Assembly (NCBI GenBank): GCA_963674595.2 | Contig: CAXXFV010000001.1 | Location: 32,001 to 96,000 of the forward strand | DNA from: a bacterium | GTDB taxonomy: Bacteria > Zhuqueibacterota > Zhuqueibacteria > Residuimicrobiales > Krinioviventaceae | DNA length: 64,000 nucleotides | Direction: 5' to 3' | Shown: positions 2,582 through 37,148 of the stretch, piece by piece | Layout of the letters: each line of letters begins with the position of its first letter | Position numbering within the stretch: the first letter of the stretch is position 1 | Notes under the pieces: model-generated | Told to the model about the DNA's origin: nothing | The model's database searches: none | The model's input: only the letters and a program-made list of their open reading frames with translations | Program-made: the position numbers and the translations under genes

Positions 2582-3610
2582 ATGAAAAAATTATTTGTTA
2601 CAGTATTTGTTCTTTTATTCAGTGTTATACTGTTTGCCGATGAAAAAACAATGATAAATAAATATGATGATGATCTTGTCTGTGTTGAAAAAAGCGACAA
2701 GGCCTGGCTTGGTGTACAGGTGAGGGACCTGGACCGTGAATATAAAAAGGAGACTGAGACCAAAGCAAATTACGGGGCCGTGATTGATCATATCCTGGAT
2801 GATACTCCCGCAGATGAAGCCGGTCTTAAACCCGGGGACGTTATTGTTAAACTTAATAATGAAAAGATTACAGATTCCAATGATGTTATAGAGGTTATTG
2901 AACAATTAAAACCCGGAGATATGATAGAATGCAGAGTGATAAGGGGCAAAGATTCAATTACCAAAGTTATTAAACTTGCGGCAAGGCCCCGACATAAAAT
3001 TCGTATTTTTAATGATAATATTAAAGATTTTTATTTTGGTACCGGTTTTATGGGTATGAAAGTACAGGAACTGGATGATAATTTGGCATCGTATTTTAAT
3101 GTTTCTGCTGATGCGGGTTTGCTGGTCACACATATTGAACCCGGAGAAGCGGCAGATAAGGCTGGTCTGCATTCCGGTGATATTTTGACAAAAATTAATA
3201 ATAAAAAAATTGAAAATAAGAAAATATTTTCTAAATTGTTAAAAGACCTGAAAAAGGGTGATAGTGTTGATATTGAGTTTATTCGGACGGGTAAACACAT
3301 GAATGCAACAATCACACTGGAGGATGAACCATCGTTTTTATTAAATGATTTTAATTTGGATACGAGTTTTTATCCCCGATGGAGAAATCGTTTTCAGGAA
3401 CGTTTTTTTGATGATATGAAAAGTTACCATAAAAATTATCAAAAATACCGTGATTTTTATGATCAGGAGTTTCGTGAAAAGTTGGATAAAGAAATAGAAA
3501 ACAAACTTTTTCAAAAAGAATTGGATATGGATAAACTGAAAATTGAAATGGAACAATTAAAATCCGATGTTAAAAATTTAAAAGAAAGAATCAAAAAGTA
3601 TGAACAATGA
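2582..3610 (+). CDS. Exported tandem PDZ-domain protein with C-terminal coiled coil
   Basis: AAGGAGG RBS; signal peptide; two PDZ repeats (WLGV..PADEAGLKPGDVI; FMGM..AADKAGLHSGDIL); no protease triad. Confidence 0.8.
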   Translation: MKKLFVTVFVLLFSVILFADEKTMINKYDDDLVCVEKSDKAWLGVQVRDLDREYKKETETKANYGAVIDHILDDTPADEAGLKPGDVIVKLNNEKITDSNDVIEVIEQLKPGDMIECRVIRGKDSITKVIKLAARPRHKIRIFNDNIKDFYFGTGFMGMKVQELDDNLASYFNVSADAGLLVTHIEPGEAADKAGLHSGDILTKINNKKIENKKIFSKLLKDLKKGDSVDIEFIRTGKHMNATITLEDEPSFLLNDFNLDTSFYPRWRNRFQERFFDDMKSYHKNYQKYRDFYDQEFREKLDKEIENKLFQKELDMDKLKIEMEQLKSDVKNLKERIKKYEQ

Positions 3611-4664
3611 AAATGAACGAGTAACCGGTTCCCCTTTACCAAAAGAACAAGTAATCAAAGCAATTGAAAAAAAGAATCCGAAACGAATCCCCATGGTGTT
3701 TGCAAAATGGTGGGGAGAAGGATTGGTGGATCAATATGGCGATGCTCTTGCAGAGTTTGAAAAATACCCAAATGATGTTGAGATGCTGATGATTCGAAAT
3801 CCGGTAGACCCTGAACGTATGTCATTATCCTGGAATTGGAAAACCAGTAAAGCCAGAGATTCTGCCTGTATAATTGATAATTGGGACAAGCTGGATGAAT
3901 TTATTGAAAAGATTCCCCAGCCTGATAATGATGACCAATTCGAAGCGTCTTTGCATATTGCCCAAAAGGCACACGCTGATGGCCGGTACTTGTTATTCGG
4001 CTGGTGGCATCTTTTTTTCGAACAGCCCTGGATGCTGAGGGGGATGGAAAACCTGATGTGTGATTATTATGCCTATCCGGACATGATTCATCGTTTTCAC
4101 CAGGCCATGTGTGATACCTATGAAAAGTATTTATTAAAAGCTGTTGAGATGTTTCAACCGGACGGGTTTTGGACAAGTGATGATCTTGGTCATCAAACCG
4201 GCCCGATGATGAGCCCGGATATTTTTCATGAATTTTTATTTCCCTACTATAATAAAATCGGTACTTTTTTAAAAAAGAACAATATCCATTTTTGGTTACA
4301 TAGTTGTGGTGATAACACTTTATTAATGCCTGATTTAATACATGCCGGTGTTTCTATTTTTCACCCGGTACAAAAGGGCACAATGGATGCTAAAGAAACG
4401 GTTGAAAAATTTGGCGACCAGATAAGCTTTCTTGCCGGATTCGATGTGCAGCACGCGCTTCAGGAACTTGATCCCGATGCCGTGCGTGAAGAAGTGAAAA
4501 GGTTGATCGATCTGTTCGATAAACAGGAAGGCGGAATGTGTATTGCCGCCGGCAACGGTATTGTTGCCGGTACACCCATTGATAACATTCGGGCTTTTTT
4601 GGATGAAGCTTTTAAATACGGTGCAACACATCGAAACCAATTGTCTGCACAAAATCCCGCTTGA
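3600..4664 (+). CDS. Uroporphyrinogen decarboxylase / MtaA-CmuA methyltransferase family protein
   Basis: LRGMENL, SDDLG..GPMMSP, LHSCGD, GFDVQ motifs. Confidence 0.8.
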   Translation: MNNENERVTGSPLPKEQVIKAIEKKNPKRIPMVFAKWWGEGLVDQYGDALAEFEKYPNDVEMLMIRNPVDPERMSLSWNWKTSKARDSACIIDNWDKLDEFIEKIPQPDNDDQFEASLHIAQKAHADGRYLLFGWWHLFFEQPWMLRGMENLMCDYYAYPDMIHRFHQAMCDTYEKYLLKAVEMFQPDGFWTSDDLGHQTGPMMSPDIFHEFLFPYYNKIGTFLKKNNIHFWLHSCGDNTLLMPDLIHAGVSIFHPVQKGTMDAKETVEKFGDQISFLAGFDVQHALQELDPDAVREEVKRLIDLFDKQEGGMCIAAGNGIVAGTPIDNIRAFLDEAFKYGATHRNQLSAQNPA

Positions 4665-4689
4665 CTTTTGGCAAAAATTTTTGTACTTT
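4661..4689 (+). promoter_or_regulatory. Sigma70-type promoter of the Met leader / homocysteine operon
   Basis: TTGACT (4661-4666), 17-bp spacer, TACTTT (4684-4689), about 30 nt before the leader ATG. Confidence 0.6.
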
Positions 4690-4720
4690 TTCAAAAATTT
4701 AACAAACAAAAAGAATTAAT

Positions 4721-4807
4721 ATGGTATACTTGCATAAAAAATATATGTATATGATGATGTTTTATTTTATGAGAAAAAGCGGGCTTGCCGCAGGTTTACC
4801 TGATTAA
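4721..4807 (+). CDS. Met-rich attenuator leader peptide MVYLHKKYMYMMMFYFMRKSGLAAGLPD (28 aa)
   Basis: Read directly: 6 ATG codons, including ATG TAT ATG ATG ATG; TAA at 4805-4807, about 25 nt before an intrinsic terminator; precedes Met-pathway genes. Confidence 0.8.
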   Translation: MVYLHKKYMYMMMFYFMRKSGLAAGLPD

Positions 4808-4839
4808 TCAATATACATAAAAGGAACTTGCAAAGGCCC
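4744..4839 (+). promoter_or_regulatory. Attenuator protector and antiterminator helices
   Basis: Protector: TATGTATAT 4744-4752 pairs with ATATACATA 4811-4819. Antiterminator: GGGCTT 4781-4786 with AGGCCC 4834-4839, and GCAGGTT 4790-4796 with AACTTGC 4825-4831. Confidence 0.75.
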
Positions 4840-4866
4840 ATAGAAAAATCTGTGGGCTTTTTTTTT
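4832..4866 (+). terminator. Intrinsic terminator of the Met attenuator
   Basis: AAAGGCCCATAGA-AAAA-TCTGTGGGC followed by T9. Confidence 0.85.
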
Positions 4867-4869
4867 ATT

Positions 4870-5604
4870 ATGTCTAAAAGATGGACACGACATTCGGTTG
4901 AAATTAAGGAATCCATTTTAACTGTTTTATGCCATAAACAATATTTTAAGATAGTACTTGATGCTGTTGAATTTAGCCGTAATGTTTTAGAGAATTATAT
5001 TAAGGCCCATTCAGAATTTGCTCGTTCTTTTGAGCCGGTTTTTTGTAACGATAATGATCCGGAAATAATAAAAAATATGTGCCGGGCTGCACAACACGCC
5101 GGTGTGGGTCCTATGGCTTCTGTTGCCGGTGCGGTCGCAAAAACTGTTTTGGATTTTTTACTTGAAGCAGGCGCGGATGAAGCTGTTGTTGATAACGGCG
5201 GAGACATTGTCCTCAAAGTAAACGAACCTGTTAAAATTGGTGTTTTTGCAGGAAAGTCCGGATTGAATAATCTGGCATTTGTTATTCCGCCAGGCGATAA
5301 TAGTTTGGCTTTATGCACATCATCCGGCACTGTCGGGCATTCTTTTAGTTACGGCAAAGCGGATGCGGCTATAGTCTTTTCAAACGATGCTTTTGTGGCT
5401 GATGCTTCGGCAACAGCGTTGGGAAACAGAATAAAAAGTATCGACGATCTGGAACGTTCGTTTGAAATATTTGAAAATAAAGATGATATTAATGGTGCAA
5501 TTGCGATTTTAGGTGATCAGATTGCATTATGGGGTGATTTACCCGAAATAATAAAAGCAAATGTTGATACGGAATTGATAACAAAAGGAAGAATATATGC
5601 GTAA
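4870..5604 (+). CDS. UPF0280/COG2122 ApbE-like protein (MA1715 family, sulfide assimilation)
   Basis: GVGPMASVAGAVA, VDNGGDI, CTSSGTVGHSFSYGKADA, ADASATALGN motifs. ATG 4870 is preferred over TTG 4828, which lies inside the attenuator. Confidence 0.85.
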   Translation: MSKRWTRHSVEIKESILTVLCHKQYFKIVLDAVEFSRNVLENYIKAHSEFARSFEPVFCNDNDPEIIKNMCRAAQHAGVGPMASVAGAVAKTVLDFLLEAGADEAVVDNGGDIVLKVNEPVKIGVFAGKSGLNNLAFVIPPGDNSLALCTSSGTVGHSFSYGKADAAIVFSNDAFVADASATALGNRIKSIDDLERSFEIFENKDDINGAIAILGDQIALWGDLPEIIKANVDTELITKGRIYA

Positions 5605-6655
5605 AATTAGATGTGCTGTTTTAGGAGCAACCGGCGTTGTCGGACAGCATTTTTTAAAATTATTGGTTGATCATCCATATTTTGAACTTGTGGCAATTTG
5701 CGCCAGTGATGCCCGTGCAGGACAAAAACTACATACAGCACGGGAACATGTTCCGGGCGGTTTGCCGAAATCTTTTTCACACCTGGAATTTGATCCGATT
5801 GATGTGGCAATATTAAAAAATAAAAAAGTTGACATTGTTTTTTCTGCATTACCGGCAGATGTTGCACAAACGATTGAAAAAGAAGCTGCAAAAAACGGTA
5901 TTAACGTTTTTTCAAATGCAAGCGCTTATCGTATGGACAGTCAGGTGCCTATTCTTATCCCGGAAGTTAACCATGAACATATCGATTTGATTAAAGCACA
6001 GAAGAAAGAAACTCCCGGATTTATTATAACCAATGCCAACTGTACAACAACGGGCCTGGCCATGGCCCTGGCGCCGATTCAACCATTGGGTATTAAAAAG
6101 CTGATTATGGCAAGTTACCAGGCCATTTCCGGTGCCGGTTACCCGGGTTTGCCGACTATGGATATATTAACAAATGTTATTCCTTACATCGGCGGTGAGG
6201 AACCCAAAGTTTTAGCAGAATGTGCAAAAATCTTTGGAAAATGTGATTCGGATGTTATTAAAGACGCTGATTGGGAAATTCATGCCCATTGTGTTCGGGT
6301 GCAAACCATTGTCGGACATTTGATTTCCGTTCATCTTGAACTGGAAAAAGAAGTAAAATATGAAGAGGTATTAAACCTTATAAAATCATACAAAGCCCCT
6401 GAAAAGGTAGCCGGGCTTCCAACGGCGCCGGTTGAACCTGTTCTTTATACAGATGTTCCAACACGTCCGCAGCCAATGCTGGATGTTAATGCCGGAGATC
6501 CGCAACGGGCAGCAGGTATGGCCGTAACAATCGGGCGGCTTGAGGTAAAAGGAAATATAGTACGATTTTTAACCTTGTCAAATAATCTGGTTCGCGGAGC
6601 AGCAGGTGGTTCCATTCTAAATGCTGAATTGGCTTATCAGGAAAAATTAATTTGA
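5597..6655 (+). CDS. asd: Aspartate-semialdehyde dehydrogenase (archaeal-type branch)
   Basis: VLGATGVVGQ, SNASAYRM, IPEVN, catalytic NANCTT, QAISGAG, NLVRGAAG. Confidence 0.95.
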   Translation: MRKIRCAVLGATGVVGQHFLKLLVDHPYFELVAICASDARAGQKLHTAREHVPGGLPKSFSHLEFDPIDVAILKNKKVDIVFSALPADVAQTIEKEAAKNGINVFSNASAYRMDSQVPILIPEVNHEHIDLIKAQKKETPGFIITNANCTTTGLAMALAPIQPLGIKKLIMASYQAISGAGYPGLPTMDILTNVIPYIGGEEPKVLAECAKIFGKCDSDVIKDADWEIHAHCVRVQTIVGHLISVHLELEKEVKYEEVLNLIKSYKAPEKVAGLPTAPVEPVLYTDVPTRPQPMLDVNAGDPQRAAGMAVTIGRLEVKGNIVRFLTLSNNLVRGAAGGSILNAELAYQEKLI

Positions 6656-6688
6656 TGATACGGGTTCTGAAAGAGGATTGACCATACC

Positions 6689-7837
6689 ATGGCAAAAACA
6701 TTTGAAGAGATAAACGAAAAAATTAAAAAGCGGAAAGCTGTGGTTTTAACGGCTGAAGAAATGACCTCACTTGTTTCGGAAAAAGGTGCGGCCAAAGCAG
6801 CAGATCAGGTTGATGTGGTAACAACCGGGACCTTTGGCCCCATGTGTTCTTCGGGTGTTTTTATAAATTTTGGGCATAGTAATCCTCGTATTCGGGCCAC
6901 AAAAGTCTGGCTGAATGGTGTTGAAGCCTATAGCGGCATTGCTGCTGTTGATTGTTATTTGGGCGCCACACAGCTTCAGGATGACGAGTTTCAAAATATG
7001 GAGCAGAAAACCGGATTTTATGGCGGCGCTCATGTTATTCATGAACTGCTTTCCGGCAACAAGGTTCAGCTTGTTGCCACCAGTCCGGGTACGGATTGTT
7101 ATCCTAATAAAAAGGTCGTTAAGGATATTAATTTAGAACAGTGCCCTGATGCGATTTTGGTGAACATGAGAAACTCTTACCAAAATTATAATGTTGCAGT
7201 TAATTTTTCTAAAAAGAAAATATACACCTATATGGGGGTATTAAAACCGGAACTGGGCAATGCCACCTATTGCAGTGCCGGACAAATGAGTCCGTTATTA
7301 AATGATCCAAGGTTCCTTACAATCGGTATCGGCACCAGAATATTTCTCGGCGGCGGCATCGGTTACATTATCGGACCGGGGACCCAGCATAGACCATCGG
7401 TTCAGGCTGCTGAACTTGGATTCCCTGTGCATTCAGGAGGAACGCTTGCAGTTTCCGGAAATTTAAAACAGATGCAGGCAAAGTGGATCCGGGCCGCAAA
7501 TTTTCCCGGTTATGGTGTCAGTATGCGTGTTGGCGTTGGTGTTCCGATCCCTATTTTAAATGAAGAAATGGCCGGCTTTACGGCCGTTGGTGATGACAAG
7601 CTTGTTGCACCGGTTGTTGATTATGCGAATGACTATCCTGTTGGTTCGACCCGCATTCTTGATAAAGTCTCTTATGCGCAACTTAAAACAGGATTTATTG
7701 ATATTGATGGAAAAAAAATTCCGACCAGTCCGCTTTCATCTTATAAAAAGGCGATTGAAATCGCCTCCGAATTGAAAACGTGGATACAAAAGGGTGAGTT
7801 TTTGCTTTCAAAACCTTCGGAAACTTTACCTCAATAA
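6689..7837 (+). CDS. L-aspartate semialdehyde sulfurtransferase / homocysteine biosynthesis protein (DUF39/COG1900, MA1821/MJ0100 family), without CBS domains
   Basis: KTFEEINEKI..AVVLTAEEM, VDVVTTGTFGPMCSSG, YGGAHVI, GQMSPLLNDP..TIGIGTRIFLGG motifs. Confidence 0.9.
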   Translation: MAKTFEEINEKIKKRKAVVLTAEEMTSLVSEKGAAKAADQVDVVTTGTFGPMCSSGVFINFGHSNPRIRATKVWLNGVEAYSGIAAVDCYLGATQLQDDEFQNMEQKTGFYGGAHVIHELLSGNKVQLVATSPGTDCYPNKKVVKDINLEQCPDAILVNMRNSYQNYNVAVNFSKKKIYTYMGVLKPELGNATYCSAGQMSPLLNDPRFLTIGIGTRIFLGGGIGYIIGPGTQHRPSVQAAELGFPVHSGGTLAVSGNLKQMQAKWIRAANFPGYGVSMRVGVGVPIPILNEEMAGFTAVGDDKLVAPVVDYANDYPVGSTRILDKVSYAQLKTGFIDIDGKKIPTSPLSSYKKAIEIASELKTWIQKGEFLLSKPSETLPQ

Positions 7838-7953
7838 AAAAACATTTTATTATTTGTAGGAATTTATTACCTTACACATTGTGTTTAAACGTTAATTAAT
7901 TATATATTATGTTTGATTCGTACATAAAAATAAATCACTAATAAGGAGGATTA

Positions 7954-9198
7954 ATGGCAGACATTTCCTTGCCAGTTATTATTCATGGTGTAACCGGACG
8001 TATGGGCCAGATAGCCCTGCGGGCTTTGCAGACAATTGCAAAAGACAAAATGGCAACCGTGAATGGTGACAATATCGTACCCCTACCAATCGGCGTAAGC
8101 CGTAACCTTGATAAAGTAAAACAGATTGCAGATGAAAAAGGTTTACAATACTATTTTGATAATATTGCCGATGCTTATGCTTTTGCAAAAGAAAAAAACT
8201 CTGCACACCAGGTCTACCATTGTACCATTTCAACAGGTATCCGTCGGAAAGTAATGTTAGAGACATTACCCCTTTTGGATCCAAAAACAACAACAGTTTA
8301 TATGGAAAAACCCTTGGCCTCGAATTATGATGACGGTTTTGCCATTGTTGATGCGCTTGAAAAAGGTAAATTTATGCACGGTGTTGTTCATCACATGCTG
8401 GCAACACCCGGATTGACCAAAGCCATGGAATTGATGCCTAAAATCAAACCTTTAACGGCACAAATGGCTTTCGGTTATGAAGTTGGTTCCGGTTTGAGCG
8501 GTAATAAAGATTTTTCCGGTCAGCGTCCTGATTTTAACTGGCTTTTGGAAGAAGCCGGTGGTGGAATTATTTTGGACATGTGTCATGAAGGTTATTTGTC
8601 CAAAGCGCTATTTGGTGATACGGAAGAGCTTAGCGCTGTAGCTCGTCTGGTTGTTCCGCAAAGATTAAGCACAGATGGAAAAACCGTAATTGACTGTGAT
8701 GTTGAAGATTTTGCCGCTTTACGCAGACAACACACAAATGGTGTTGTTAATACATCCATTTGGTCCTGGTACCGACGTGTTAACTCTGAATTCGGTCCGC
8801 TGGAAATTACAGTAGACGGAGAAAACGGAAGTATGGTTTTTGGACTTTATGGTCTGAAAGTACAGTGGAAAGAAACCGCCCCTGCAAACCGCTGGGAGAA
8901 ATCAGTTTCCGGCGAAAAAACAGAATGGCGTGACTATTGGGAATATTACGATCTTCCCTATAAAGATCCCTTTGCAATCGAATTAGCAGATTATTTACAA
9001 TGTGCTATGAAAGGCGAAAAATATCCCAAAGATGCTATCCAGGCTTTACATGTTTTGAGCGAAGTTGAATCATTTTATGAAAGCGCTGCTCAGGATGGTA
9101 AATCCGTTTCCCGTAAAGATGTTCGTTATTATCCGGTTCCAAATCCTGAAGGTTGGACCCCTGAACGATTGCAAAATAATTTGAAAATTGTAAAATAA
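7954..9198 (+). CDS. Gfo/Idh/MocA family oxidoreductase
   Basis: GVTGRMG Rossmann motif, EKP motif, GGGIILDMCH. Confidence 0.85.
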   Translation: MADISLPVIIHGVTGRMGQIALRALQTIAKDKMATVNGDNIVPLPIGVSRNLDKVKQIADEKGLQYYFDNIADAYAFAKEKNSAHQVYHCTISTGIRRKVMLETLPLLDPKTTTVYMEKPLASNYDDGFAIVDALEKGKFMHGVVHHMLATPGLTKAMELMPKIKPLTAQMAFGYEVGSGLSGNKDFSGQRPDFNWLLEEAGGGIILDMCHEGYLSKALFGDTEELSAVARLVVPQRLSTDGKTVIDCDVEDFAALRRQHTNGVVNTSIWSWYRRVNSEFGPLEITVDGENGSMVFGLYGLKVQWKETAPANRWEKSVSGEKTEWRDYWEYYDLPYKDPFAIELADYLQCAMKGEKYPKDAIQALHVLSEVESFYESAAQDGKSVSRKDVRYYPVPNPEGWTPERLQNNLKIVK

Positions 9199-10409
9199 TG
9201 ACATTAAAAAAATTACCTGTTTTTAAAGGTGAAAAAATATCTATTACAGATGTTTATGACAGACAATGTAATAAAGAAATTTTGGCAACTACGGCCCTTT
9301 ACGGGCCGTGGACGCCAAACGGGGAATTCGACTGGCCAAGCTATACCAATCTTGTTGAAAATGTCCTTCAAAATAGCAGTATTCCGGCTACGAATGTAGA
9401 TACAACCTGGGCGATTTATAATGACTGGGAATTAACAAAAGAATTGATATGGCATACCGCGCAAGTTGCTTCAGAGAATGCACATTATATTTCTATGGAA
9501 AGACCGCTTGTGGTTGCCGGACTGAACACCAATTCCTATAACCTTTCTGTTGATGAAATTGCACCGACATTGCGAAAACAAATGCAGGAAATTTATAAAG
9601 GCCTGAAAGAAAGGTTTATTATTCCCCGGATTCGTTTTATACCGGTTCCCGATAAACGACTTTATGATGCTCCTTCGGATGTGAAATATAAAGTCTACCA
9701 GGAAATTGGCAAGGTCGTTGAAGAGTTTACGGATTATGGATTTGTATTTTTTGAGCTTGATATCGGAATTCCCGGATTTGGCTCCAACTTTACGCCCTTG
9801 GAAATTGAAAATATATTGACAAAAACACCGCAAATTCAGGAGTATAAAAGCGCCCTTATCAGCCGTAAATCATCTTTTCAATGTCAGTATGATTATTGTG
9901 ATGATATGATTCGGCTGGCTATCGTAGAAAGAGTTGCACCTGAACGTGTGCAGTTTTCTACGGGTAACGACTGGTTTATAGCCCTGGCAAGATACGGAAA
10001 AAATCTGAAAAAACATGGTTATTTACTTGGCGCCTCTCAAATGAGTCCCATGCTGTTCAAACTATGGCGGGATTTTGTATCGGAAGGTAAACCCTGTGCT
10101 TTGGCATTGGAACAGGACCTTCAGGCGGTTGCCAAAGACTTTTGGACACCCGGAAACGTGGGTATTTACAGACACTATATGGGGATTTTTCTGGCAATGA
10201 CGGGATTGATAAAACATCCCTTACCTCACCCAAAATGTGACAGCCGGTATATCGTTCAGCCGGATGACTATTTTCTCCCTCTCAAACATGCGTTGCGTTT
10301 AGGACTTGTTGATAAACACGATGCCGTCAGCATTGTGAAAAATATCATTCCAGGCTATGATTCCTGGAGTGATGAAAAAATCCGCAACCGAATTCAATAT
10401 ATGAGTTAA
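9198..10409 (+). CDS. Divergent DHDPS-like (class I aldolase / DUF993-like) TIM-barrel protein
   Basis: 1-nt overlap with the upstream gene; PATNVDT, YKSA (candidate Schiff-base Lys) and STGND resemble the DHDPS-like/DUF993 pattern. Confidence 0.5.
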   Translation: MTLKKLPVFKGEKISITDVYDRQCNKEILATTALYGPWTPNGEFDWPSYTNLVENVLQNSSIPATNVDTTWAIYNDWELTKELIWHTAQVASENAHYISMERPLVVAGLNTNSYNLSVDEIAPTLRKQMQEIYKGLKERFIIPRIRFIPVPDKRLYDAPSDVKYKVYQEIGKVVEEFTDYGFVFFELDIGIPGFGSNFTPLEIENILTKTPQIQEYKSALISRKSSFQCQYDYCDDMIRLAIVERVAPERVQFSTGNDWFIALARYGKNLKKHGYLLGASQMSPMLFKLWRDFVSEGKPCALALEQDLQAVAKDFWTPGNVGIYRHYMGIFLAMTGLIKHPLPHPKCDSRYIVQPDDYFLPLKHALRLGLVDKHDAVSIVKNIIPGYDSWSDEKIRNRIQYMS

Positions 10410-10488
10410 ATGAGAAAAGGGGGCCCTGGAATTATATCTTGTTCACTGTTGTTATACTTGTAATTTAATATTAAGTGGAGAAGATATC

Positions 10489-11004
10489 ATGCAGGAAAGA
10501 AAAAATATTGTAACAATTAAAAATAAACCCGTTACACTGTTAGGCCCGGAAATTAAAGTTAGCAGCAAGGCCCCGGAGTTTACGGTTATTGATAACAATC
10601 TTGATGAGTTTCATTCGTCAATTTTGCATGGAAAAATTCGGGTTTATAATGTTGTCCATTCACTGGAAACGTCTGTATGTGACTTGCAGACAAAAAACTT
10701 TAATCAACACGCATCCGATTTTGGTGACCGTGTTGAGGTGTTGACGTTAAGTGTGGACCTGCCGTTTACTCAGGCCCGGTGGTGCGGGAATGCCGGAATA
10801 GATCGCGTTAAGGTTTTATCCGATCATAAAGACCTTTCCTTTGGACTGGCGTATGGAGTTGTTATTAAGGAATTGCGTCTGTTGGCCCGTGCTGTTTTTG
10901 TGGTTGATGAGAATGATACCGTCCGATATGTTGAATACGTCCCTGAACTGAGCACGCATCCCAACTATGATAAAGTGCTTGAAACAATAGGTCAGTTAAT
11001 TTAG
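10489..11004 (+). CDS. tpx: Thiol peroxidase (atypical 2-Cys peroxiredoxin)
   Basis: SLETSVCDLQT, SVDLPFTQARWC, LLARAVFVVD. Confidence 0.92.
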   Translation: MQERKNIVTIKNKPVTLLGPEIKVSSKAPEFTVIDNNLDEFHSSILHGKIRVYNVVHSLETSVCDLQTKNFNQHASDFGDRVEVLTLSVDLPFTQARWCGNAGIDRVKVLSDHKDLSFGLAYGVVIKELRLLARAVFVVDENDTVRYVEYVPELSTHPNYDKVLETIGQLI

Positions 11005-11030
11005 GTTTTTAACATCAAGAAAGCGGACCT

Positions 11031-11318
11031 GTGACGCGGCTTGAAAAAGATGAAAAAGTACTGAGAAAATTTGTTACTGTTTATTGTAAACACGAACATA
11101 AACAAAACCAACTATGTGCCGAATGTCAGGATATTTTAGATTATTCGTTGGGTCGTTTACAAAAATGTCCCTATGACCCCAAGCCCATGTGCAAAAAATG
11201 TCCGGTCCATTGTTATAAACCTTTTTACCGGCAAAGAATAAAACAGATCATGAAAAAAGCCGGCATCCTGATGATTTTAAGGGGCCGGCTTGATTATGTT
11301 TATCACTATTTTTTCTAA
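11031..11318 (+). CDS. Nitrous oxide-stimulated promoter (YgbA) family protein
   Basis: YC..H...LCxEC...RLQKCP..KPMCKKCPVHCY...RIKQIM. Confidence 0.85.
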   Translation: MTRLEKDEKVLRKFVTVYCKHEHKQNQLCAECQDILDYSLGRLQKCPYDPKPMCKKCPVHCYKPFYRQRIKQIMKKAGILMILRGRLDYVYHYFF

Positions 11319-11319
11319 A

Positions 11320-11835
11320 TTACATATCGTCTTCCTGGTCGTCTGTTTCATCAAAATCGCCCAAAATATCCGGCTCTTCAAAATCTTCCGATTCGTCAGG
11401 TTCATCTTCCTGTGCTGCCTTGAGTGTTTCATAAGGTTCTACAATCATTTGAATATCTATATTAAAAAAGTCGAAAATTTCTGATAATAATTTTCCGCCT
11501 TTTTCATTCGGTATTTTGGTGACCAGGTTCATAGAAGCATATTCGGCCCTGACAACTTCTGCATCCTCACCTTTACCTATTTTTATCTTTTTTTGTTTTA
11601 CATTGAACGGCTTGATTGTTACGGCAGGAAGAATATACTCTTCGCCGGTATGGTTATCAAGAAATGATACTTTGGTCAGGCCTCTTACCATATTGTTAAA
11701 AAGCTCGCCGACCTGGATGCTGTTGTCAAGTTCCGCCTCTACCTGTAGAACAAGCTGTCTCACGATTTCGTCATTTTCACCTTTATCGTCGGCAGGCCAG
11801 AATTTTTTAATAATAGACTTTTCAAAATTAAGCAT
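11320..11835 (-). CDS. Hypothetical protein with strongly acidic C-terminal tail
   Basis: Open frame; AGGAG RBS before ATG 11835; tail EDEPDESEDFEEPDILGDFDETDDQEDDM. Confidence 0.65.
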   Translation of the reverse strand: MLNFEKSIIKKFWPADDKGENDEIVRQLVLQVEAELDNSIQVGELFNNMVRGLTKVSFLDNHTGEEYILPAVTIKPFNVKQKKIKIGKGEDAEVVRAEYASMNLVTKIPNEKGGKLLSEIFDFFNIDIQMIVEPYETLKAAQEDEPDESEDFEEPDILGDFDETDDQEDDM

Positions 11836-12049
11836 GTATTGACTCCTCTTTATATACACGCATTCACATTAATTAAAACATAGTTGACGAACATACAAAA
11901 TAATTTTCTGTAACGCAAGAGTATAATGTTGAGACATCCCAACTTGACCGTCCAAAATAAAACTTGACACTGGAAAGATAAATTGTTATTATAGTAGGTA
12001 ATTATGCAAGTCTCGTTGCAGGAAAATATGTTCAATGGAGGAGTACAAT

Positions 12050-19030: not shown

Positions 19031-19552
19031 ATGTTTAAACTTCAATCAATCGACTCTGTCGATGCTTTAAAAATTTCCATCCAATGTGAAAAGGACATGA
19101 AAACCTACTATGAAAAAATCTCATCTTTGATAAAAGACGAAGATGCCCTCACAATTTTTAAAGGATTGGCTGAGAAAGAAGAGAAACATCGAAAAAAACT
19201 CATTAAAACCTATAGCCAAGTTAGCGGTAAAAAAATTCTGTATCTTAATTTAGGTAAAAAGCATAAATTGAACTCGCTGGAAAAGTGCGGATCTGATCCG
19301 AACCATTCAGTTCGAATTGCAAAGAAAAATGAAGAAGAATTAAAATCATTTTACATTACAATTTCTCGTCGTTTAATTGAGCCTGAATTGAGACAACTTT
19401 TTAGAGAAATGGCTTATGAACGCGGTCAACATTACGCTCTTTTAGAAGCCTCTTTTGTTGAACCATTAGCTCTTGATCAAGAGCCTGTTACAGAAAACGA
19501 AAATATTATGAATGAAGTGACTGCTCATTCTGAAGCAATAAAGGCATGGTAA
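19031..19552 (+). CDS. Ferritin-like (rubrerythrin-domain) protein
   Basis: Two helical repeats: E..YY...LAEKEEKH and E..FY...MAYERGQH; AGGAGG RBS. Confidence 0.7.
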   Translation: MFKLQSIDSVDALKISIQCEKDMKTYYEKISSLIKDEDALTIFKGLAEKEEKHRKKLIKTYSQVSGKKILYLNLGKKHKLNSLEKCGSDPNHSVRIAKKNEEELKSFYITISRRLIEPELRQLFREMAYERGQHYALLEASFVEPLALDQEPVTENENIMNEVTAHSEAIKAW

Positions 19553-19572
19553 ACAAATTCATAAATTTTTTT

Positions 19573-19610
19573 AAAAAAAAGCCTGCAACTTTCTAGTTGC
19601 AGGCTTTTTT
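19573..19610 (+). terminator. Intrinsic terminator (possibly bidirectional)
   Basis: A8-GCCTGCAACT-TTCT-AGTTGCAGGC-T6; perfect 10-bp stem. Confidence 0.9.
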
Positions 19611-19714
19611 AATATAAGCTTGTCTCAAATTGAGATGTTGATTTTAATAAAAGAATCTTGTACTTTTTAAAATAGAAAAATTGACTGATAAATTATACTA
19701 AAGGTAATAGTGAT

Positions 19715-36092: not shown

Positions 36093-36161
36093 GTGAATAA
36101 AGTAATGTTACATCATCATCATCACCACTATCATCATAATACCGCCATGGTAGGTGGGTGA
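36093..36161 (+). CDS. hisL: his operon leader peptide MNKVMLHHHHHHYHHNTAMVGG
   Basis: GGAG RBS, GTG start, 8 His codons (6 consecutive), TGA at 36159, terminator downstream. Confidence 0.92.
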   Translation: MNKVMLHHHHHHYHHNTAMVGG

Positions 36162-36200
36162 GTTGCATTATTTTTTCTAATAAATTTTATAAACTACGCC

Positions 36201-36232
36201 AAGCCTGCCATAAAATATGGCAGGCTTTTTTT
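36201..36232 (+). terminator. his attenuator terminator
   Basis: AAGCCTGCCATA-AAA-TATGGCAGGC followed by T7; its 5' arm CCTGCCAT can alternatively pair with ATGGTAGG (36147-36154). Confidence 0.92.
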
Positions 36233-36251: not shown

Positions 36252-37148
36252 ATGGTAGATTGGAATGGACTCAGTGAAAGTGTATTTAAAATAGGTTTAC
36301 CCAAGGGCAGTTTGGAAGAGCCAACTTTTCGTTTGTTGGCAAAAGCAGGTTTTTATTTTTCCGTCAGCAAAAGATCATTGTTCCCGACAATTGATGACGA
36401 TGAAATTCAGGCTATTCTCATTCGTGCCCAGGAAATTGCAAAATATGTAGAAGAAGGTGTTTTTGATGTCGGTTTGACCGGTAAAGACTGGATCATGGAA
36501 AACCGTGCAGACGTTGTTGAAGTTGGTGAATTGACCTATGCAAAATCGACAAGGCGCCCGGTAAAATGGGTGTTGGCGGTTCCAAATGAATCACCAATTA
36601 AAAGTATCAAGGATTTGCAGGGAAAAAGAATTGCCACGGAAATTGTCAACTTGACAAAAGATTATTTGGCTAAAAATGGTGTTGAGGCCGAGGTAGAGTT
36701 TTCCTGGGGTGCGACAGAAGTGAAAACACCGACACTTGTCGATGCCATTGTTGAAGTCACAGAAACCGGAAATTCTCTTAAAGTCAATAACCTTCGCATT
36801 GTTGAAACGTTGCTGGAATCCAGGACTATGCTCATAGCCAACAAACAAAGCTGGGAAAATCCTGCCAAACGGGAAAAAATTGAAAATTTAAACATGTTGC
36901 TGCAAGGCGCTATTCAGTCTGAGGGTAAAGTCGGGCTCAAGCTGAACGTTCCCAAAGACAAGCTGGAAAACCTGATGAAAACATTGCCGGCTATGAAACG
37001 CCCCACCATCTCATCCTTGTATGGTGACGACTGGGTTGCTGTTGAAATAATTATCGAAGAAAAAATCGTCAGAAATATAATTCCTTCTTTAAAAAGAGCG
37101 GGTGCTCAGGATATCATCGAGTATCCATTAAACAAGGTAATTTATTAG
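36252..37148 (+). CDS. hisG: ATP phosphoribosyltransferase (long form)
   Basis: [33 protein letters not shown]-terminal regulatory domain. Confidence 0.95.

Follow-up and report, generated by a model that had tools for sequence, protein, structure and literature searches.

Attenuators that read a leader peptide are known in their classical form from the trp, his, thr, leu and pheA operons of Enterobacteria, and textbook control of methionine synthesis is by S-adenosylmethionine (SAM) riboswitches, T-boxes or repressors. Here we describe an element in a 64,000-nucleotide stretch of the bacterial contig CAXXFV010000001.1 (the window, numbered from its first letter), in which a short upstream open reading frame (uORF) with clustered Met codons and an intrinsic terminator precede the genes for a COG2122 protein, for aspartate-semialdehyde dehydrogenase (asd) and for a DUF39 enzyme of homocysteine synthesis. 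We consider it likely that this element is a ribosome-dependent transcription attenuator that reads Met codons and controls the COG2122-asd-DUF39 operon. What has been computed is the set of leader elements, how far they are conserved, where the Met codons fall and how the helices complement one another.

The closest described leader is MetL of Campylobacter jejuni, a predicted 20-aa leader peptide whose frame, with 3 Met codons, lies on a short RNA ahead of metBA, and for which termination is proposed unless the ribosome stalls (Porcelli et al. 2013, PMC3847290). A later report finds a translation-initiation signal on MetL and places a second Campylobacter Met-rich small ORF upstream of the gene for a methionine transporter (Froschauer et al. 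2025, PMC11955535). As in the window, a short ORF with Met codons stands before genes of methionine synthesis; MetL differs in phylum and in pathway (metBA), a comparison made by description only, and a helix or covariation analysis such as the one given here was not seen in the consulted portions of these reports. In Streptomyces lividans, a metL leader ORF with several Met codons before metNIQ is called an attenuator in the consulted text of PMC8079986, where it is described without a terminator, whereas the window element has a 13-bp terminator. Mycobacterial polycysteine uORFs attenuate operon expression in response to that amino acid according to the consulted part of a preprint (bioRxiv 10.1101/834739); these uORFs are leaderless, unlike the window element with its intrinsic terminator and antiterminator. 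The portions consulted of an Actinobacteria survey (PMC1262725) and of a genome-wide attenuator survey (PMC2965389) report no RNA element on Met operons and mention no Met leader, respectively. Subscription-only papers and supplements aside, we found no Met leader described on the COG2122/DUF39 pathway and no Met attenuator of any kind studied mechanistically; all that came to light were the predictions for Campylobacter and Streptomyces. The original prediction named no characterized dedicated Met-leader attenuator for this pathway; the idea itself has a precedent in MetL of C. jejuni before metBA (PMC3847290, as far as consulted). The classical mechanism is already known and the Campylobacter prediction came earlier; what would be new, if the attenuator reading holds as we expect it to, is a well-populated Met leader family of a little-studied phylum, together with a second, convergent one, both on a recently discovered pathway and in phyla from which no such control had been described.

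The leader and the operon behind it are laid out in the window as follows.

4661-4666 and 4684-4689, + strand: promoter-like pair TTGACT and TACTTT with a 17-nt spacer, read in the sequence
4721-4807, + strand: leader ORF of 28 codons plus stop (ATG 4721, TAA 4805-4807), MVYLHKKYMYMMMFYFMRKSGLAAGLPD, read from the sequence and presumably translated
4736-4741, + strand: two Lys codons (K6, K7), 5′ of the Met cluster, with a possible sensing role
4744-4752, + strand: protector 5′ strand TATGTATAT (RNA UAUGUAUAU), lying on the Met codons and able to pair with 4811-4819
4745, 4751, 4754, 4757 and 4769, + strand: ATG of the putative regulatory Met codons M9, M11, M12, M13 and M17, from the sequence
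4781-4796, + strand: antiterminator 5′ strand GGGCUU...GCAGGUU, within uORF codons 21-26, able to pair with 4825-4839
4811-4819, + strand: protector 3′ strand ATATACATA (RNA AUAUACAUA), between the stop codon and the terminator
4825-4839, + strand: antiterminator 3′ strand AACUUGC...AGGCCC, of which 4832-4839 is also the base of the terminator 5′ arm
4832-4861, + strand: intrinsic terminator with a 13-bp stem (4832-4844/4849-4861), loop AAAA and U9 at 4858-4866, by folding and terminator scan
4870-5604, + strand: UPF0280/COG2122 (ApbE-like) protein, 244 aa (NCBIfam NF003324, 285 bits against a cut-off of 275; atlas PF27030)
5597-6655, + strand: asd, aspartate-semialdehyde dehydrogenase, 352 aa (Pfam; TIGR00978, 403.6 bits)
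6689-7837, + strand: HcyBio/DUF39 sulfur-incorporation enzyme of homocysteine synthesis, 382 aa (PF01837, E 7.7e-147)

The promoter-like pair, the 28-codon ORF with its five internal Met codons, the antiterminator and the terminator thus lie in the sequence exactly where they had been predicted, and NF003324, TIGR00978 and PF01837 bear out the predicted identities of the three downstream genes. The upstream URO-D/MtaA-like gene ends at 4664, so that its final codons share sequence with the -35 hexamer. A consensus promoter scan of 3500-12000 does not list the promoter pair because TACTTT matches just 3/6 positions of the -10 consensus; by eye, TTGAC(A/T)-17-TAnnTT recurs at the equivalent place in seven homologous loci (G022, L086, L087, L088, L100, L101 and L106), G022 being a relative from the same order as the window's genome, G000. 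The terminator is the top-scoring terminator-like site of 3500-12000, with a hairpin of -17.1 kcal/mol and a probability (P) of 0.96 in the full-length leader, and its U tract ends 3 nt before the ATG of the first gene at 4870. The leader as a whole folds better than its shuffles (z -3.35; 1/200 shuffles as good). A scan of the entire 6.6-Mb genome for a Met-rich uORF followed by a terminator gave six candidates, among which this locus alone combines a clustered Met run with a terminator stem of at least 9 bp directly before a gene.

In this layout, the window element shares with the classical attenuators a promoter, an ORF with codons for the end product, mutually exclusive antiterminator and terminator, a U tract and a biosynthetic operon behind them. 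As in the classical attenuators, the regulatory codons of the window family lie just 5′ of the antiterminator 5′ strand. It differs from them in that its regulatory codons are AUG, in the lack of sequence homology to the Rfam leader families, and in that the 1:2 protector or pause hairpin is not conserved among the Met leaders.

The arrangement suggests the following course of events. Transcription would begin at the promoter-like site near 4661-4689, and a ribosome would translate the 28-codon ORF before RNA polymerase has left the leader; this translation, its coupling to the polymerase and the response to Met are what we infer from the computed features. When charged elongator Met-tRNA is scarce, the ribosome would stall on the AUG cluster at 4745-4759 and leave 4781-4796 free to pair with 4825-4839. 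This antiterminator pairing would hold the base of the terminator 5′ arm, and the polymerase would read through into the operon (ON). When Met-tRNA is plentiful, the ribosome would move toward the stop at 4805 and cover or unwind 4781-4796, whereupon the terminator at 4832-4861 with its U9 could form and transcription would end before the first gene (OFF).

This course was followed by folding with a ribosome advanced codon by codon, the RNA being held single-stranded to a point 15 nt beyond the first base of the A-site codon. Full-length folds cannot discriminate between the two states, and transcripts cut before the terminator 3′ arm were therefore folded instead. For the truncated window transcript, the predicted minimum-free-energy (MFE) structure is exactly the antiterminator that had been proposed. 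Its predicted state holds at -19.7 kcal/mol with the A site from M9 to F16, falls to -12.0 at M17, and is down to -2.7 from S20 to the stop, so that in these folds the antiterminator is spared at M9 to M13 and lost toward the stop, as had been foreseen. To place the other leaders on the same footing, we defined in each of 19 distinct leaders a boundary, the codon with the largest single-codon loss of antiterminator stability, which is set by folding alone. At the four codons before the boundary, 32 of the 76 positions are Met, against 11.2 expected, and 0/20000 random placements reach 32. The result is unchanged with assumed ribosome leading edges of 9, 12, 15 or 18 nt. Control leaders of the phylum behave alike with other amino acids: Lys/Thr clusters (asd), Cys clusters (cysK-like) and Met/Cys clusters (metY-like) also lie at the boundary.

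Homologous leaders were gathered via the downstream gene and not via Met codons. DUF39 occurs in 2/125 genomes of the window's class, namely G000 and G022, and the G022 operon is the same, COG2122-asd-DUF39, with a COG2122 protein 52% identical to that of the window. Its leader comprises TTGACA-17-TACATT, the uORF MKKYMQNKMMPKRSILRGFAQSVP and a terminator whose U tract has nine residues. In the phylum at large, a profile built from the two COG2122 proteins finds COG2122 in 27/167 genomes, of which 19 have a uORF with clustered Met codons and then a terminator directly before the gene; in two of the 27 the upstream region is cut by a contig end. Nine metagenome loci were also found, three of them without usable upstream DNA; among the other six the leader is present in four and missing in two, and several of these leaders duplicate genome leaders. 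The homologous uORFs run to 20-33 codons and end 23-41 nt before the terminator stem, and Met makes up 54 of the 459 residues (11.8%) in 19 uORFs. The upstream genes vary between loci; the leader remains with COG2122. In other classes the gene after COG2122 is DUF39 or aspartokinase, and the regulated unit would therefore be the whole route from aspartate to homocysteine. Fourteen leaders of other classes share the nearly invariant core ATGG(G/A)CATGC, which encodes M-G/D-M. The constancy of this core (alignment A2, columns about 31-41, L087-L119) exceeds the needs of Met sensing. One genome, G142, keeps a terminator remnant only: in the last 90 nt before its COG2122 gene (L097) the terminator is degenerate, with two G-U pairs, and the Met uORF is missing, which looks like a decayed leader.

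In the window, GGGCTT 4781-4786 pairs with AGGCCC 4834-4839 and GCAGGTT 4790-4796 with AACTTGC 4825-4831, giving 13 pairs with 2 G-U. The duplex is worth -17.2 kcal/mol and forms with a pair probability of 0.69 before the terminator 3′ arm is made, and 0/500 shuffles of the 3′ segment of the uORF bind the terminator arm as well. Across the 19 leaders the duplex between this segment and the terminator arm has a mean z of -2.6 against shuffles. In 15 of them at most 30/500 shuffles match it, the exceptions being L100, L104, L106 and L110. The partner bases in the uORF copy the terminator 3′ arm, GUGGG accompanying GCCCAC arms and GCGGG accompanying GCCUGC arms; between lineages the antiterminator shows an exchange of A:U for G:C and lineage-specific extensions of up to 15 pairs. 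The homologous terminators have compensatory changes in 6/12 pairs. The prediction of a Met-reading attenuator on a homocysteine operon therefore gains from its conservation in 19/27 genomes, from the Met placement, from covariation in the antiterminator and from an Rfam search without a riboswitch or T-box, to which we return below.

The protector helix, which had been proposed to pair over the Met codons, fares less evenly. Within the window it is a perfect 9-bp complement (-6.4 kcal/mol), a length that 53/2000 shuffles reach. It forms with a probability of 0.27 while the terminator has yet to be made and of 0.46 once it has, a structure forced to contain it lies 0.6-1.8 kcal/mol from the MFE, and it would be transcribed ahead of the antiterminator 3′ strand. 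This AU-rich helix is thus a plausible genuine competitor in the modeled window leader, where the proposal can stand. As a general feature it falls: pairing between the Met-codon stretch and the spacer is no better than in shuffles in 16/19 leaders, and the protector is for that reason not a feature of the family. An analogue better than shuffles (at most 3/300 as good) is present in G022 and L099, the window itself being borderline at 28/300, and in L087 and L088 the Met codons are instead followed closely by a local hairpin that shows one compensatory change.

Initiation also bears on the mechanism. The original prediction had called the element conceptually unusual because a shortage of Met affects the start of translation too, and initiation and elongation with Met both depend on MetRS. 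The untranslated trp leader terminates. The naked window leader, unlike that of trp, is predicted to prefer the antiterminator as long as the terminator 3′ arm is still missing (P 0.69); should this be so in the cell, failed initiation under Met shortage would also tend to ON and the difficulty over initiation would fall away. An untranslated leader would mostly adopt the antiterminator, and failed initiation would act in the same way as stalled elongation.

The first 8 nt of asd are shared with the end of the COG2122 gene (5597-5604), and DUF39 is followed by a gene for a GFO/IDH/MocA-type oxidoreductase; no NIL/ferredoxin gene was seen in the window operon. Homocysteine formation from aspartate semialdehyde without homoserine, by DUF39, COG2122 and a NIL/ferredoxin protein, and the requirement for COG2122 in Desulfovibrio are described in the consulted part of PMC5764234. 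The gene upstream of the leader (3600-4664) encodes a protein of the URO-D fold that resembles MtaA/CmuA methyltransferases weakly, below threshold (54.9 bits, the cut-off being 244).

The operon asd was the sole asd found in the 6.6-Mb genome, where a search gave one true copy; with 63-71% identity to the asd genes of its bacterial family, it is their orthologue. Several observations, this one among them, weigh against the attenuator reading. With the genome's only asd under leader control, a purely Met-specific switch is awkward, because the aspartate semialdehyde for Lys, Thr and the cell wall then sits behind a Met-codon leader; at plentiful Met its supply could possibly come via the Lys codons of the uORF, from basal read-through or from a weak internal promoter. 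The uORF has no Shine-Dalgarno-like sequence before it; such a sequence precedes 46% of the long ORFs of this genome. Full-length equilibrium folds of the window leader give the terminator at every position of the ribosome mask (P 0.82-0.98), an outcome to be expected of an attenuator, so the mechanism rests on co-transcriptional order, and the fold model leaves out kinetics. Between the main Met cluster of the window and the boundary lie F14, Y15 and F16, with M17 alone at the boundary. Some homologous leaders hold just two Met codons (M-G/D-M), and L088, L111 and L115 have one certain internal Met codon, since the frame there has no ATG ahead of this pair. Six of the 27 COG2122 genomes (G141, G142, G150, G138, G139 and G140) are without the leader. 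Finally, two of the 19 leaders, the window and L083 (from Thermotogae), were chosen through their Met codons, and the counts and the permutation test overstate independence because the leaders are related.

Outside the phylum, a rough scan of 80 DUF39 loci gave 12 candidate rows, of which L004 and L083 alone stand at an operon 5′ end with a strong terminator. L083, from a Thermotogae metagenome-assembled genome (MAG), is one further clear case: ahead of aspartokinase-DUF39-COG2122 it carries a promoter and a Shine-Dalgarno sequence, followed by the uORF MRSLALFLKNSTDMMMRWKAPGSCPPVCRL and a 13-bp terminator. DUF39 is present in 64/151 genomes of the Thermotogae class, and 3/20 further upstream stretches from there carry leaders, L215 (NSMMMRW), L217 (NSMMMCG) and L227 (NMMAMMMW), whose Met runs again sit at the folding boundary; for the remaining 17 the operon extends further upstream, and eleven further stretches lay inside a longer gene. 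All four Thermotogae-class leaders have a strong terminator and precede aspartokinase-DUF39 or DUF39. A model built from the Met leaders (R1) does not match L083, and these leaders for that reason look like a separate invention. On the 80 DUF39 loci of other phyla, R1 gave four weak matches, the best at 29.9 bits and none convincing.

The single asd and the leaders of its relatives bring up the alternative that survives best, an attenuator of the aspartate family that is multivalent and senses Lys, perhaps others, together with Met, instead of a dedicated Met switch. Stand-alone asd genes in the window's family have a uORF and a terminator upstream in 13/15 loci (L156-L171, L176), 10 of these 13 uORFs being Lys/Thr-rich (e.g., MTIDMKKKTMKKTFKKSWAL and MIKPMLTTTKKTMKTKKNGCGLGIPK), and from its codons the family asd leader looks like a multivalent aspartate-family attenuator. 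R1 matches eight asd leaders over their full length (E 1e-5 to 3e-3). These leaders resemble that of the window in layout, in a similar terminator, GCCC(A/G)CAG...CTGTGGGC, and in a similar spacer from stop to terminator; they differ in their Lys/Thr codons with few Met, and in that the window has COG2122 between leader and asd. A stall anywhere upstream of the boundary keeps the antiterminator, the window uORF contains K6, K7 and K19, and G022 has four Lys next to three Met before its boundary. With such leaders on family asd genes, and with the window asd the genome's only one, the earlier suggestion of Lys sensing at the asd branch gains support. Before the boundary, the window has five Met to two Lys and no Thr codons, AAA is a common codon in AT-rich DNA, and the 14 leaders of other classes share their M-G/D-M core with no regular Lys cluster, all of which makes a multivalent switch rather unlikely in our estimate. 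Local alignments of the window leader, both with the asd leaders and with the COG2122 leaders of another class, span the spacer and terminator; their DNA scores (21-39 for family asd leaders, 18-52 for other-class COG2122 leaders) are not decisive on origin. One may tentatively suppose, at somewhat less than even chance, that a single attenuator scaffold was re-coded, with Lys/Thr codons before asd and Met codons where COG2122/DUF39 (elsewhere aspartokinase) joined, that the antiterminator is its default fold, and that the Thermotogae leaders are convergent.

The fixed core of the other-class leaders could instead point to sequence-specific arrest by the nascent peptide or the mRNA (M-G/D-M, AUGG(G/A)CAUGC), perhaps modulated by Met or SAM. 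Its codons are constant across 14 leaders (the middle one is GGC in 9, GGT in 1, GAC in 4), which sensing of Met-tRNA does not require. We regard arrest as very unlikely nonetheless: the window, G022, L086/L101 and the Thermotogae leaders are without the core and have ATG runs as their only common trait, the peptides are otherwise not conserved, and RNA pairing with GCCCAC or shared ancestry could likewise account for AUGGGC.

Slightly less probable still is that a riboswitch of an undescribed type, or a leader RNA bound by a protein, acts directly on the terminator, with the uORF incidental. Met genes are often under SAM riboswitches, and the uORF has no Shine-Dalgarno sequence. A SAM-I riboswitch lies directly before DUF39, 100-230 nt upstream, in 5/13 loci scanned (Bacillota-type) in other phyla.

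L022, 4752-4864: SAM-I riboswitch, Bacillota-type MAG
L024, 259-370: SAM-I riboswitch, Bacillota-type MAG
L028, 2854-2968: SAM-I riboswitch, Bacillota-type MAG
L035, 5768-5878: SAM-I riboswitch, Bacillota-type MAG
L043, 5751-5859: SAM-I riboswitch, Bacillota-type MAG

These riboswitches have the same position as the Met leader and presumably the same job, and they sense SAM via a conserved aptamer; the window element would read the charging of Met-tRNA and not SAM, and the aptamer is absent from the window, the 18 leader loci and the genome. The sensor of the pathway is thus exchanged between phyla, SAM-I in one and the Met leader in the other. A search of the 64-kb window and of 18 homologous leader loci (69.7 kb) gave 0 Rfam matches at gathering score, so no known riboswitch was found, and one of 4600-4900 with E up to 10 returned no SAM, S-adenosylhomocysteine (SAH) or T-box family. 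SAM-I (RF00162) was not found in the genome, and the control genomes respond. None of the Rfam leader families (His_leader, Thr_leader, Trp_leader, Leu_leader, Phe_leader and the trpB motif) reaches its gathering threshold. The best of the sub-threshold matches, all driven by the terminator, were those to the trpB motif (28.2 bits against 59), to Phe_leader (20.6 against 55) and to Thr_leader (16.3 against 55), so that the element, although it would act as these families do, belongs to none of them. Beyond ATG codons and mutually complementary segments, the leaders share little sequence, whereas the frame stays open, holds its length and ends 23-41 nt from the terminator despite the drift, and the non-homologous leaders of another phylum again have ATG runs; each of these argues against such an RNA. 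That a chance short ORF merely precedes a constitutive or upstream-gene terminator and has no regulatory role is disfavored to the point of being scarcely credible, for although ATG-rich short frames are common in AT-rich DNA, and four close Met codons (at most 1 residue between them) match 52 times in any open frame of the genome, long genes included, one match alone has a strong terminator directly before a gene, the upstream genes differ while the leader stays with COG2122, a promoter-like site separates the upstream gene from the uORF, and the Met placement statistics stand against it.

The organism has His and Trp leaders too, which supports the use of the same mechanism for Met. The His leader lies in the window.

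36106-36162: uORF MLHHHHHHYHHNTAMVGG of the His leader
about 36201-36232: terminator of the His leader
36252-37148: hisG (PF01634 and HisG_C)

R1 weakly matches the site of the His leader (36106-36232). It also matches both strands at 19493-19633 (35.7 and 30.2 bits), probably a bidirectional terminator. On contig C3 of G000, at about 363041 on the + strand, a Trp-rich uORF (..NWNLWWGWWR..) and a terminator stand before a 459-aa gene, the start of which resembles tryptophan synthase beta. Two further leaders come from genomes of the same class. At L143:1501-1626, a uORF of alternating Met and Cys (MKPLNIKSIASLINMCMCMCQCIKMFGRRSG) with its Met/Cys codons at the boundary is followed by a terminator and then, at L143:1692-3020, by the gene for a PF01053 PLP enzyme that looks like an O-acetylhomoserine sulfhydrylase. 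At L147:192-320, a Cys-rich uORF (..CAACLCCHMACCICTCC..) and an intrinsic terminator precede a PALP-family cysteine-synthase-like gene (L147:354-1316). A metY-like gene of G000 (L246, contig C16 248742-250016, - strand) is 51% identical to the L143 enzyme and has no leader; the product of the gene directly before it is presumably an Rrf2-type regulator.

If the tentative re-coding of one scaffold is true, the attenuator in the window was re-coded on the spot, around the one asd of the cell, an antiterminator as the default fold would answer the difficulty peculiar to sensing the amino acid of initiation, and the Met-Met-Met leaders of Thermotogae would be a convergent second invention on the same pathway. 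The Met leader itself poses the question of how a cell senses an amino acid that also starts translation. Its peptide would read the charging of Met-tRNA, a signal distinct from SAM, on a gene that is under SAM-I in Bacillota-type loci. About 20 related leaders and the unrelated Thermotogae set offer a first mechanistic test of a Met attenuator an alignment to start from, along with helices that covary and codons that are placed exactly. In uncultured phyla, the leader marks the COG2122/DUF39 route and a dedicated aspartokinase as a methionine-regulated unit.

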